Below are positions 43,221 through 44,250 of a DNA stretch of 64,000 nt, in pieces. The notes under the pieces were generated by a model, which searched no databases, was not told where the DNA came from, and worked only from the letters and a program-made list of their open reading frames with translations. Source of the DNA: an uncultured Thermoleophilia bacterium. GTDB taxonomy: Bacteria > Actinomycetota > Thermoleophilia > UBA2241. Where the stretch lies: the NCBI GenBank assembly GCA_903862845.1, contig CAIOZS010000103.1, forward strand, positions 6,187-70,186, read 5' to 3'. The position numbers were made by a program, and so were the translations under genes. Every line of letters starts with the position of its first letter. Position 1 is the stretch's first letter.

Positions 43221-43446
43221 AGGCAAGACCCGGGGTCTGCTTTCACGCGGATCTCGGTGGCTGGTCGCGGCACTGCCGAACACAAAGGTCGTGCCGCAGC
43301 GAGGCAGCGGTTGGTCGCCCAAAAGGCGATCGACCGCTGTGCGGAGAGACTGAGGCGAGTGTGCTATACTTGCCTCCGTGGCATCTGCTAGATAAAGTGC
43401 TAGAGACTCTAGCCCAAGTGATCGGCGAGAACGAGAGGACGGGTTG

Positions 43447-44250
43447 ATGTACCTGGGCACCCGGAGGGTTCGCTCAGCGGGCCGCACCAGCGGAAGCATC
43501 GAGGTCACTCTGCCCGTGCAGCTGAGCGTGCTGCAGGGGGTTGAATGCCGCCTCGTCGTGCGCGACGGCGCACGCCCAGAATTGGTGCTGGAGCCGGAGC
43601 TCGGCGAGGCCCAGAGCTTCTTTCGCGACATGTGGGAGAAGCTGGCTCTGGGGCTCGCCGAGGTGGACGAGATCGGCGATTTCTCGGCCGCGGCCTTCGC
43701 CCTCACGCTTTTCTCGCCGGCGCGTGCCCCCGAGCGACCGCCGCTGACATACGCAGATGGTCTTGCGGCTTTGCGCGAGCGCGTCGTCCAGGGCGTGGGC
43801 GGAGCCGCCGCCGCCGAGCTCGACGCAGCACGGGAGGCCCTCGCCCGCGTGCTGGGTGCCTTGGGTGCCGCTGCCGGACAGCGCCTGGGGCTGACGCATG
43901 CGTTGGCCATGGCGTTTGGCGATGGGCTGGCCTACGTCATGACGGGTGTGGCGGTGGGCTGGGGCACCGACTTCGAGCGCGGCGTCGCCCACCAGACCTT
44001 CTGCGACGAGATGGCCGCCGAAGCTCAGGGCGGCGGGGAGCGGCCCTCGGCCTCGCCCTATGAAGATCGTGCCTGGCGTGCGGCCCAGCCCGGCCTTGCG
44101 CGTGTTTTTGAGCAACACAAGAAGTGGCAGGCCGAGCCCGTGCTCTACGAAGCGGCCCGAGATCGATGGCATGTGGCGCTGACCCTGGAATTGCGAGTGG
44201 CGGCCGCCACGACGAACAGTACAGAGACCTGGAGGTTCTTTTCGCCATGA
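43447..44250 (+). CDS. Hypothetical protein with an N-terminal AbrB/MazE-like swapped-hairpin motif; candidate regulator inside the gvp cluster
   Basis: RRVRSAGRTSGSIEVTLPVQLSVLQGVECRLVVRDGARPELVLEP resembles SpoVT/AbrB. Stop overlaps the gvpN start. Confidence 0.4.
   Translation: MYLGTRRVRSAGRTSGSIEVTLPVQLSVLQGVECRLVVRDGARPELVLEPELGEAQSFFRDMWEKLALGLAEVDEIGDFSAAAFALTLFSPARAPERPPLTYADGLAALRERVVQGVGGAAAAELDAAREALARVLGALGAAAGQRLGLTHALAMAFGDGLAYVMTGVAVGWGTDFERGVAHQTFCDEMAAEAQGGGERPSASPYEDRAWRAAQPGLARVFEQHKKWQAEPVLYEAARDRWHVALTLELRVAAATTNSTETWRFFSP

Follow-up and report, generated by a model that had tools for sequence, protein, structure and literature searches.

A candidate autoregulator of accessory gas-vesicle genes and its conserved GCTAGA boxes

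What is the function of the gene that lies directly 5' of gvpN in a gas-vesicle (gvp) cluster of an uncultured Thermoleophilia bacterium, and do the short repeats in front of it form its operator? We asked this for a stretch of 64,000 nucleotides, below called the window. The features that we discuss are collected in Table 1.

Table 1. Coordinates of the regulator candidate, its putative operator and neighbouring features in the window
Feature	Position	Strand	Remarks
Conserved hairpin	43305..43339	+	15-bp stem, CAAAA loop; 3' of the gvpC-like gene and 5' of the regulator gene
Extended -10-like element, TGCTATACT	43362..43370	+	TATACT preceded by TGC; assignment tentative
Box 1, TCTGCTAGA	43384..43392	+	Near-invariant operator element; conservation over 80 loci
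Box 2, GCTAGA	43399..43404	+	12 bp 3' of box 1; direct repeat; left arm of the palindrome
Box 3, TCTAGC on + (GCTAGA on -)	43408..43413	-	Inverted; right arm of the 15-bp palindrome
Shine-Dalgarno-like GAGAGGA	43433..43439	+	7 nt 5' of the ATG; read from sequence
Regulator candidate, coding sequence	43447..44250	+	267 aa, complete; first gene of the accessory gvp string (synteny)
N-terminal domain (residues 1-55)	43447..43611	+	Candidate DNA-binding domain; may be AbrB-like beta-beta-alpha-beta-beta
C-terminal all-helical domain (residues 53-256, approximately)	43603..44247	+	No detectable relative
gvpN	44247..45266	+	AAA+ ATPase, Pfam AAA_5; ATG overlaps the regulator TGA as ATGA

A conserved family within gas-vesicle clusters

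The open reading frame extends from a TTG at 43444 or an ATG at 43447 to position 44250. Judging from the homologues, the true start is the ATG, and the protein begins with MYLG. It is identical to a protein (P0001) that is present on 38 contigs. The original prediction described the gene as an orphan; this was wrong, as it belongs to a conserved family with more than 160 homologues, each of which is annotated as hypothetical. We found no match for the protein in Pfam, NCBIfam or PDB, and it belongs to none of the named Gvp families (GvpA/J/M, C, F/L, G, H, K, N and O, plus the NCBIfam Gvp models). In the same Pfam and NCBIfam search its neighbours do match Gas_vesicle, AAA_5, GvpL_GvpF, GvpG, GvpO, GvpH/HSP20 and GvpK. 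A name for the family was not found in the literature either.

All 80 genome loci that carry a homologue are gas-vesicle clusters. Their carriers belong to at least three phyla and come from Thermoleophilia, Chloroflexota (including the gas-vacuolate phototrophs Chloroploca and Oscillochloris) and Alphaproteobacteria; Dehalococcoidia and Anaerolineae/Anaerolineales are among them. Clusters of this type also hold CDC48, Hsp20 and DnaJ-type genes. Over the 80 loci the usual order is gvpA, a gvpC-like gene (which may be present or absent), the regulator candidate and gvpN. The next gene 3' is gvpN in most loci and an Hsp20 gene in about eight; the distant family members P0305 and P0302 are likewise encoded directly 5' of gvpN. 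In the window, the stop codon of the candidate overlaps the gvpN start as predicted (TGA and ATG share the sequence ATGA, with the gvpN ATG at 44247), and the two genes are translationally coupled. From there, same-strand gvp genes headed by gvpN continue at least as far as gvpK (54603-54926).

On its 5' side the gene is preceded by a conserved hairpin, which is probably a terminator or attenuator that closes the gvpA-gvpC unit. As RNA, its folding energy is -32.5 kcal/mol (z = -6) on the plus strand as compared to -21.9 on the minus strand, because its G:U wobbles can pair on the plus strand only. The arms stay paired despite substitutions in three loci (L003, L005 and L006), and Chloroflexota loci have a GC-rich hairpin and a T-run in the equivalent position.

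This context also bears on the idea, raised in the original prediction, of an antitoxin-like module. Insertion of a toxin-antitoxin pair into the cluster, with the protein as its MazE/AbrB-type antitoxin, would explain the weak N-terminal resemblance to AbrB/MazE that is described below, and nothing else speaks for it. The family is confined to gvp clusters, where its position is fixed. The protein is 267 aa long, the genes next to it encode a GvpC-like repeat protein and the AAA+ protein GvpN, and in the 80 loci we see no toxin-like neighbour. We reject the module and regard such an antitoxin as extremely improbable.

Conserved boxes upstream of the candidate regulator gene

The intergenic region is AT-richer than its surroundings, as had been noted: its GC content is 0.54-0.59 over 43300-43450, compared to 0.63-0.78 (mostly at least 0.67) in the flanking coding sequence. 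The direct GCTAGA repeats that were expected in this region are present in the form TGCTAGA, with a distance of 12 bp (43386-43392 and 43398-43404). Also present is the perfect palindrome, with a length of 15 bp instead of the predicted 13 bp (GCTAGAG-A-CTCTAGC, 43399-43413). By itself it does not exceed chance, as the window contains 41 perfect palindromes with arms of at least 7 and a gap of at most 1, and a first-order Markov model gives an expectation of about 21. The clustering of CTAG does exceed chance. This tetranucleotide is strongly avoided in the window (14 sites versus 92 expected), and 3 of the 14 sites lie within 25 bp at this place, for which the simulated probability is approximately 1.7e-4.

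As the decisive evidence for more than chance we regard a result of sequence comparison, namely the conservation of the boxes across phyla. Each of the nine positions of box 1 carries about 1.4-2 bits across the 80 loci. The sequence TCTGCTAGA has 77 copies in 1.15 Mb, 73 of them within 350 nt 5' of the regulator gene and 4 elsewhere, and these upstream copies cover 72 of the 79 usable loci. The array GCTAG-N7-GCTAG is found 82 times in the same 1.15 Mb (80 genome loci, both strands), every time upstream of the regulator gene and on its strand; with the window and the loci L001 and L002 added, the count becomes 85 of 85. The remaining CTGCTAGA copies, off the upstream regions, are located inside mapped genes or far from gene starts. 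We found no extra copies of the operator elsewhere in the clusters, and gvpA is not preceded by an array of these boxes. In metagenomes, TCTGCTAGA-N6-GCTAGA had the gene downstream of it in only 12 of 116 usable matches; a query with 15 fixed bases must be expected to match by chance in a collection of that size, as most of these matches do, so that the scan is uninformative on specificity.

The number of boxes per locus ranges from two to four, with spacers of 6 nt. The third element differs between groups: Thermoleophilia and Dehalococcoidia have CTAGC, Anaerolineae have TAGCA(C), and in Alphaproteobacteria, which have three direct boxes and lack the palindrome, it is a direct box. The original prediction put the emphasis on the palindrome; the conserved unit is instead the direct repeat of GCTAGA with its 12-bp spacing, and what stands of the palindrome is a local combination of box 2 with the inverted box 3.

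Whether the protein itself reads these boxes is a separate matter. Potentially, another regulator could do so, and the protein could be a gas-vesicle assembly or chaperone factor, such as a partner of GvpN or GvpA, that binds no nucleic acid. The gene does sit among assembly genes and is coupled to gvpN in the window, no DNA-binding family matches the protein, its large helical domain has no known fold, and the extreme conservation of the N-terminus may just as well be due to binding of the highly conserved GvpA. On the other hand, when the gene order changes, the boxes track the regulator gene and not gvpN or gvpA. They remain with it in the loci in which it is apart from gvpN (L052, L055, L059, L060, L064, L067, L070 and L077, from Dehalococcoidia and some Anaerolineales). 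That GCTAG-N7-GCTAG arrays occur nowhere else in the 1.15 Mb, and that the gene is the first one after its own operator, which is the classic layout of an autoregulator, also speaks against an assembly factor.

A further argument comes from the only other regulator encoded in the clusters, an OmpR-type response regulator. The gvpA promoters have a different repeat, TAACGC every 11 bp, upstream of the promoter, and TAACG-N6-TAAC occurs in 19 copies upstream of gvpA and once elsewhere. Therefore, the adjacent response regulator has its own candidate site. Typical sites of OmpR/PhoB-type regulators repeat directly about every 10-11 bp and are found at the -35 element of the activated promoter or further upstream, a geometry that the TAACGC array matches. 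We also considered the GCTAGA boxes as a site of this type and rejected it, given their 12-bp period and their location downstream of the -10 element. Furthermore, the response regulator is absent from the flanks of L053, L056 and L062, and all three still have three boxes.

In summary, we consider an assembly factor unlikely. The reading that we favour, as somewhat more likely than not on this comparative evidence, is that the protein binds the boxes and so controls the accessory gvp operon, its own gene included, probably as a repressor and in the manner of MraZ. The predicted autoregulatory transcription factor of the distal gvp operon is supported in so far as the family and a nearly invariant box array co-occur at every locus examined and the array lies on promoter and transcription start wherever a promoter is recognisable.

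Position of the boxes relative to promoter and transcription start

The TATACT predicted near 43365 is found at 43365-43370. The extended element TGCTATACT of which it is part lines up with the TGnTATAAT of Chloroflexota consensus promoters. Its assignment as a -10 element is tentative, because it is poorly conserved among the Thermoleophilia relatives and because a sigma-70 scan of the intergenic region of the window gave no promoter that reaches 9 of 12 matches. The core TGCTA of the boxes is also contained in TGCTATACT. A terminator scan of the intergenic region made a single call, which is the palindrome on the minus strand. Neither in the window nor in its Thermoleophilia relatives did we see a convincing promoter that is conserved beside the boxes.

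A clear promoter is present at 19 loci. It is close to the consensus (TTGACA-17-TAnnnT) and in most cases TG-extended, and in 19 of 19 its -10 element ends exactly 4 nt before box 1. The predicted transcription start is therefore preceded by the invariant TCT of box 1, and relative to this start the boxes occupy about -2 to +30. As far as can be judged from sequence, this is the geometry of a repressor operator that acts on DNA. The geometry rests on the 19 loci with a clear promoter, because in the window and the Thermoleophilia no convincing promoter is seen and elsewhere there are T-runs nearby: in many loci the T-run of a terminator is found just 12-18 nt 5' of box 1. A further point against the operator reading is that the 12-bp period of the boxes exceeds one helical turn.

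Two other candidates were considered and rejected. A second box resembling TTGCT, together with the spacing of 12 bp, might have indicated a sigma-54 promoter; this was rejected on inspection, as the obligatory -24 GG is absent. In Anaerolineae, GTGCTAYAAT in the -10 region and ATTRTAGCAC could form an RNA stem; its left arm exists only where an extended -10 is present, and the covariation is weak (10 concordant versus 3 discordant changes, in closely related loci). We treat these sequences as additional sites with a TGCTA core and not as a stem.

The GCUAGA repeats might also act as RNA in the 5' leader, bound by this or another protein or forming a small hairpin at the ribosome binding site, and control translation or stability of the mRNA of the accessory operon. 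The distance between array and start codon is nearly fixed (about 41 nt in most Chloroflexota loci), with the array abutting the Shine-Dalgarno sequence, and box 2 can pair with the third element (GCUAG...CUAGC in the window, UGCUA...UAGCA in Anaerolineae). Moreover, in the many loci with a terminator directly before the boxes, read-through RNA would carry all of them. However, the TCT of box 1, which is the best conserved part, lies upstream of the predicted start at the 19 loci with a consensus promoter. The hairpin is not conserved, as the three direct repeats of Alphaproteobacteria illustrate. The leader of the window folds no better than shuffled sequences (z = 0.17), and Rfam had no match in 40900-44300 with E-values up to 1. 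A function as RNA appears to us distinctly less likely than an assembly factor.

Protein domains and the proposed circuit

The N-terminal domain has the motif R-x-I/V-R-S-A-G-R-T/N-S-G-S-I/V-E-I/V-T-L-P ... C-R-L-x-V-R-D-G-x-R-P-E-I/L-V-L, with a mean column identity of 83% across phyla and the invariant residues R6, R9, S10, A11, G12, R13, G16, S17, E19, T21, L22 and P23. Like box 1, the domain hardly varies from one phylum to the next, and we count both in favour of the autoregulator. A search with its profile among 1.84 billion representatives gave only 76 clusters. About 45 of them consist of proteins of 210-280 aa in which the domain is N-terminal; the others are shorter and probably fragments, together with a few weak matches in unrelated proteins.

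The original prediction assumed an AbrB/MazE-like start of the protein. We were not able to find SpoVT_AbrB with hmmscan against Pfam, either for the full protein or for the isolated N-terminus, at E-values up to 10; divergent members of the family had no Pfam match in hmmscan either. A profile search of the PDB sequences returned no AbrB-like chain, and there is no structural match. What stands is a weak similarity in the expected register. Alignments with hhalign to AbrB/MazE domains covered 35-37 columns and gave probabilities of 34% and 17%, with scores of 20.5 and 18.5. Column-shuffled nulls scored 8.9 (sd 1.7, max 16.5) and 8.4 (sd 1.8, max 15.5), and 0 of 350 reached the real score. The first row of the alignment on the AbrB side was verified to be 100% identical to an AbrB carrying PF04014, and a search with this alignment found only near-identical Bacillus AbrB and added no diversity.

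AlphaFold2 predicts a helix (24-29) and two strands (34-39 and 45-50), and does not resolve residues 1-22. For the N-domain alone the pLDDT is 65, and the first two putative strands are again not resolved. The helix and the two strands (alpha-beta-beta) are consistent with the second half of the AbrB/MazE fold, and an unordered start of 22 residues fits what would be expected of a dimer-swapped hairpin that is modelled as a monomer. Taken together, an AbrB fold of the N-domain is plausible rather than established. The C-terminal domain has the conserved motifs FGD and G-x-G-T-D-F-E-R-G-x-A-H and several invariant Trp.

Similar to AbrB, Abh and SpoVT (PF04014), the protein has an N-domain of roughly 50 aa followed by a separate C-domain; in SpoVT the N-terminal AbrB domain is followed by a separate GAF domain. 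In the profile alignment, T-L-P aligns with V-I-P of AbrB, and the alignment also covers the beta3-beta4 hairpin. The loop that would join beta1 to beta2 (A-G-R-T-S-G-S) is longer than in AbrB, and whereas AbrB sites are loosely defined, the box described here is nearly invariant.

MraZ binds three to four repeated boxes with 6-nt spacers, has its transcription start inside box 1 and represses itself (PMC12957436). The array of GCTAGA boxes resembles this in box number and spacers, in its location on the gene's own promoter and in the predicted start at box 1. In contrast, each chain of MraZ contains two AbrB-like half-domains in tandem, and the protein assembles into rings, while here a single N-domain is combined with a helical domain of 200 aa. 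The boxes of MraZ read GTG(G/T) and recur every 10 bp; those described here have a palindromic CTAG core and recur every 12 bp. The MraZ model of Pfam did not match the regulator candidate. By analogy, we see the candidate as a functional analogue of MraZ and not as a member of its family.

Other gas-vesicle clusters also encode regulators that set gvp expression: GvpE and GvpD in haloarchaea, and GvrA, GvrB and GvrC in Serratia. Our candidate is cluster-encoded as well; it belongs to a different type of cluster, however, and is unrelated to them in sequence, as it has no Pfam or NCBIfam match to any named Gvp or Gvr family. To our knowledge, none of these five has been described as acting via repeat boxes with a CTAG core, and we know of no regulator described for the bacterial gvp clusters that carry CDC48, Hsp20 and DnaJ genes.

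In the circuit that we infer, the protein would act as a transcription factor specific to gas-vesicle clusters. The N-terminal 55 residues, which are highly conserved and rich in R, S and G, would probably form an AbrB/MraZ-like beta 'cradle' dimer and recognise the GCTAGA boxes with their palindromic CTAG core, two to four of which, at a spacing of 12 bp, would cover its own core promoter and transcription start. The novel helical C-domain would probably hold the bound copies together, and these would block RNA polymerase, resulting in negative autoregulation of the long operon that the gene heads (regulator, gvpN, Hsp20/GvpH-like, gvpF/L, gvpG, gvpO, CDC48, gvpJ, gvpK). The gvpA and gvpC-like genes would form a separate upstream unit that ends in the hairpin and has its own promoter code, in which the TAACGC repeats probably serve the adjacent OmpR-type response regulator.

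The C-domain may in addition receive a signal. It is conceivable, though here we are about as doubtful as in the case of the assembly factor or slightly more so, that the circuit is an assembly checkpoint, in which an unrecognised DNA-binding domain sits on the GCTAGA operator and the helical domain responds to the assembly state of the gas vesicles, with free GvpA, GvpN or a nucleotide as conceivable signals, so that transcription of the whole accessory operon would follow the need for assembly factors. If true, bacterial gas vesicles would have a feedback loop of the FlgM or GvpD type, which has not been described for them and which could be transferred to engineered clusters of acoustic-reporter genes.

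What is gained is a named candidate regulator with an exact operator sequence and a testable circuit. A protein family for which Pfam and NCBIfam have no model is now defined, and with it a helical domain that has no structural relative. In other hosts, in which gas vesicles are produced as ultrasound reporters, it is a practical problem to keep shell protein and assembly factors in balance, and a compact natural repressor-operator pair could be reused there. For the gas-vesicle clusters themselves, the finding would mean two promoter codes, one for gvpA and gvpC, the genes of the shell, and a second one, under autoregulation, for the assembly machinery.

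Gas-vesicle setting of the candidate regulator family

The candidate regulator gene (below, the regulator gene) had been described as an orphan; we found more than 160 homologues, all of them "hypothetical" or without a name. The regulator protein has no match in Pfam, NCBIfam or PDB sequences. Its true start, placed by the homologues, is the ATG at 43447 (MYLGTRR...), and its TGA (44248-44250) does overlap the gvpN ATG at 44247, as noted at first. The first 55 residues (the N-terminal domain) have a mean column identity of 83%, with R6, R9, S10, A11, G12, R13, G16, S17, E19, T21, L22 and P23 invariant.

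Scanning one genome per species gave 80 loci. The nearest, with 88-90% identity, are from Thermoleophilia, which makes this class the probable origin of the window; the remaining ones belong to Chloroflexota (Anaerolineae, Chloroploca, Oscillochloris, Dehalococcoidia) and Alphaproteobacteria (Xanthobacteraceae, Hyphomicrobium). When the Gvp proteins of the window were mapped onto every locus, all 80 turned out to be gas-vesicle clusters; two divergent family members likewise lie directly 5' of gvpN in gvp clusters. Only 76 clusters were recovered when 1.84 billion representative proteins were searched with a profile of the N-terminal domain. Most of these are 210-280 aa long with the domain at the N-terminus, and the others are shorter proteins (probably fragments) and a few weak matches in unrelated proteins. 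Judged by these searches, the regulator protein belongs to a family that has no annotation and is confined to gas-vesicle clusters.

The usual gene order is histidine kinase, response regulator, OmpR-type response regulator, gvpA, repeat protein, regulator gene, gvpN, Hsp20/GvpH-like gene and 344-aa HExxH protein, followed distally by gvpF/L, gvpG, gvpO, a GvpA/J-like gene, zinc-finger proteins, CDC48 and a second gvpF/L. The corresponding features of the window are listed in the table.

Features of the gas-vesicle cluster around the regulator gene (window positions)
Feature	Position	Strand	Remarks
OmpR-type response regulator	40257-40979		beside gvpA
TAACGC array	41035-41075		CCTTACGCAACGCACACGC; 60-200 nt upstream of gvpA in loci L008-L046
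CTAG site, gvpA leader	41179		within TTCTAGAGGAGG
CTAG site, gvpC-like gene leader	41533		within CACTAGGAGG
GvpC-like protein, 557 aa	41547-43220	+	directly 3' of gvpA; 99-nt (33-aa) tandem repeats
Conserved hairpin	43305-43339	+	15-bp stem, between gvpC-like gene and regulator gene
TATACT	43365-43370		with preceding TGC, extended -10-like TGCTATACT
Box 1	43384-43392	+	GCTAGA box
Box 2	43399-43404	+	GCTAGA box
Palindrome	43399-43413		GCTAGAG-A-CTCTAGC
Box 3	43408-43413	inverted	GCTAGA box
Regulator gene	43447-44250	+	267 aa
97-aa ORF	45286-45579	+	3' of gvpN, adjacent to next
147-aa ORF	45576-46019	+	3' of gvpN
344-aa protein	46649-47683	+	HEHAH (HExxH) motif; weak Peptidase_M48 match
Chaperone-rich accessory set	49106-54926	+	same strand throughout

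A 33-aa (99-nt) repeat period is a hallmark of GvpC. In the 557-aa protein there is, in addition, a PEPK-rich linker, and at the C-terminus a helix-hairpin-helix-like segment that weakly matches the C-terminal ends of phasin PhaH, NuoE and ribosomal proteins; the protein resembles a GvpC analogue whose tail is unusual. The two small ORFs after gvpN are paralogues according to a tblastn cross-match, neither has a Pfam match, and GC between them reaches 0.86. The HExxH protein, encoded 3' of the Hsp20/GvpH-like gene in almost every related cluster, is a possible metalloprotease specific to these clusters; we were not able to find a name for it in the gas-vesicle literature. The accessory set, which is typical for such clusters, comprises two DnaJ-type zinc-finger proteins, a CDC48-type double AAA+ ATPase, a GvpL-DnaJ (J-domain) fusion, two GvpJ/M-like proteins (one with a long C-terminal extension) and GvpK.

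The hairpin downstream of the gvpC-like gene folds as RNA with -32.5 kcal/mol (z = -6), is specific to the plus strand through G:U wobbles, and keeps its pairing despite substitutions in three other loci (L003, L005, L006). No T-run follows it in the window. We take it as a probable terminator or attenuator of the actinobacterial type, or else as a 3' end that stabilises the gvpA-gvpC mRNA.

GCTAGA boxes upstream of the regulator gene

The sequence features first reported for the regulator leader are largely as described. The intergenic region is AT-richer (GC 0.54-0.59 over 43300-43450 vs 0.63-0.78 in flanking coding sequence), TATACT is present, and TGCTAGA occurs at 43386 and 43398, a spacing of 12 bp. 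The perfect palindrome is there too, two bases longer than the 13 bp claimed. Perfect 7+7 palindromes are not unusual in the window, since it holds 41 of them vs about 21 expected. Conservation across phyla speaks against reading the one in this leader as a chance palindrome. CTAG is strongly avoided in the window (14 sites vs 92 expected, about 6.6-fold under-represented), and three of the 14 sites lie inside 25 bp at the regulator leader (simulated probability about 1.7e-4). Five of the 14 fall in three consecutive gene leaders, those of gvpA, the gvpC-like gene and the regulator.

We compared the 160 nt upstream of the regulator gene in every locus. These regions show an almost unchanging aTCTGCTAGA, and 12 bp further on comes GCTAGA. 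The third element depends on the clade: Alphaproteobacteria have GCTAGA once more, in direct orientation at +24, Anaerolineae have TAGCA(C), that is, an inverted TGCTA, and Thermoleophilia and Dehalococcoidia have CTAGC, which is why the window has a palindrome. Since the element that creates the palindrome varies, the conserved unit is, judged from these alignments, a direct repeat with a palindromic CTAG core and not the palindrome.

The array is tied to the regulator gene. GCTAG-N7-GCTAG occurs 82 times in 1.15 Mb (80 loci, both strands), in every case upstream of the regulator gene and on its strand; with the window and two further loci the count is 85 of 85. For TCTGCTAGA we see 73 copies upstream of the regulator gene (in 72 of 79 usable loci) and four elsewhere in the 1.15 Mb. 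The remaining CTGCTAGA copies sit inside mapped genes or well away from gene starts; of those checked outside the regulator upstream regions, none forms an array upstream of gvpA. The boxes accompany the regulator gene even where it is split from gvpN and Hsp20 comes next instead (loci L052, L055, L059, L060, L064, L067, L070 and L077). In distant family members, CTGCTAG or its degenerate form CTGCTAT is kept some 30-45 nt 5' of the start codon.

Promoter geometry and the likely reader of the boxes

In 19 loci the boxes are preceded by a sigma-70 promoter close to consensus (TTGACA-17-TAnnnT, matching at 10-12 of 12 positions and TG-extended in most); the window and its relatives in Thermoleophilia showed no convincingly conserved promoter. 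In every one of the 19, the -10 hexamer stops exactly 4 nt short of the G of box 1, so that transcription is predicted to start inside box 1. Relative to this start, the invariant TCT is upstream and the array spans about -2 to +30, which, for predicted starts, is the geometry of a repressor operator. The best-conserved bases of box 1 would thus be untranscribed, which argues for recognition of the boxes as DNA. A role of the repeats in RNA we consider unlikely: besides this promoter geometry, the hairpin between box 2 and the third element is missing where the third box is direct, the window leader folds no better than shuffled sequence, and Rfam gave no match.

In many loci the distance from an upstream terminator T-run to box 1 is just 12-18 nt. 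In Anaerolineae (L008, L010, L013 and others) the GC-rich hairpin and T-run ending the gvpA/gvpC-like unit overlap the -35 element and spacer of the consensus promoter of the regulator gene, about 60-20 nt 5' of box 1 (CCCCTG...TTGACAGGGG-N-TTTTTT-GTGCTATAAT); terminator and promoter are thus compactly overlapped there.

The main competing explanation is that the regulator protein is an assembly factor and another protein reads the boxes. Apart from the regulator gene, the cluster encodes a single regulator, the OmpR-type response regulator. At the gvpA promoters, however, the array is a different one: (C)TAACGC is repeated directly every 11 bp, right 5' of TATAAT, and TAACG-N6-TAAC has 19 copies upstream of gvpA (17 loci) and one elsewhere. 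Direct repeats of 11-bp period are the classic geometry of OmpR/PhoB sites, and this array is likely the site of the adjacent response regulator, different from the GCTAGA array. Furthermore, L053, L056 and L062 keep three GCTAGA boxes with no response regulator within the fetched flanks (10 kb each side of the regulator gene). We therefore regard the competing explanation as rather unlikely. An autoregulator is usually encoded by the gene that comes first behind its operator. Since the boxes are always 5' of the regulator gene, and the response regulator has a likely array of its own, the regulator protein is the best candidate reader. The suggested antitoxin-like module does not fit a protein of 267 aa, without a toxin partner and at a fixed position in gvp clusters.

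Fold and proposed mechanism

An AlphaFold2 model from a 78-sequence alignment (pLDDT 81, pTM 0.78) has a helix (24-29), a beta hairpin (34-39 and 45-50) and an all-helical domain (53-256), with residues 1-22 at low confidence; the N-terminal domain modelled alone has the same elements (pLDDT 65). We infer that these may be the second half of an AbrB-type beta-beta-alpha-beta-beta unit whose first hairpin is ordered only in the swapped dimer. Against a small AbrB/Abh/SpoVT/MazE/Kis/ChpS/VapB alignment, hhalign gave a probability of 34%, or 17% with a broader query (scores 20.5 and 18.5). The register is as expected, with T-L-P on I-P of AbrB and beta3-beta4 on beta3-beta4, and none of 350 column-shuffled controls reached the real scores (highest 16.5). 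The N-terminal domain shows a profile similarity to AbrB/MazE above the controls and gives no Pfam sequence match; its AbrB membership is plausible. For the helical domain there appears to be no relative of solved structure.

The closest working analogue is MraZ, which binds 3-4 boxes with 6-nt spacers, has its transcription start in box 1 and autorepresses (PMC12957436). Unlike MraZ, the regulator protein combines a single N-terminal domain with a large novel domain, and its boxes share a CTAG core and recur every 12 bp. Because of these differences, and because it fails both the AbrB and MraZ family sequence tests, we treat it as an analogue and not as a member.

In summary, the original observation is confirmed, and its interpretation is in part supported and made sharper: autoregulation of the distal gvp operon agrees with conserved boxes on the gene's own promoter, with the palindrome dropped as the conserved unit. 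The most likely role of the regulator protein is autoregulation of the accessory gvp operon in the manner of MraZ. Its dimers would bind the CTAG cores, the helical domains would link neighbouring dimers, and the complex would occlude the promoter of an operon that runs from 43447 and extends at least as far as gvpK (54926). The assembly factors would in this way be expressed at a fixed level that does not depend on the gvpA and gvpC-like unit.
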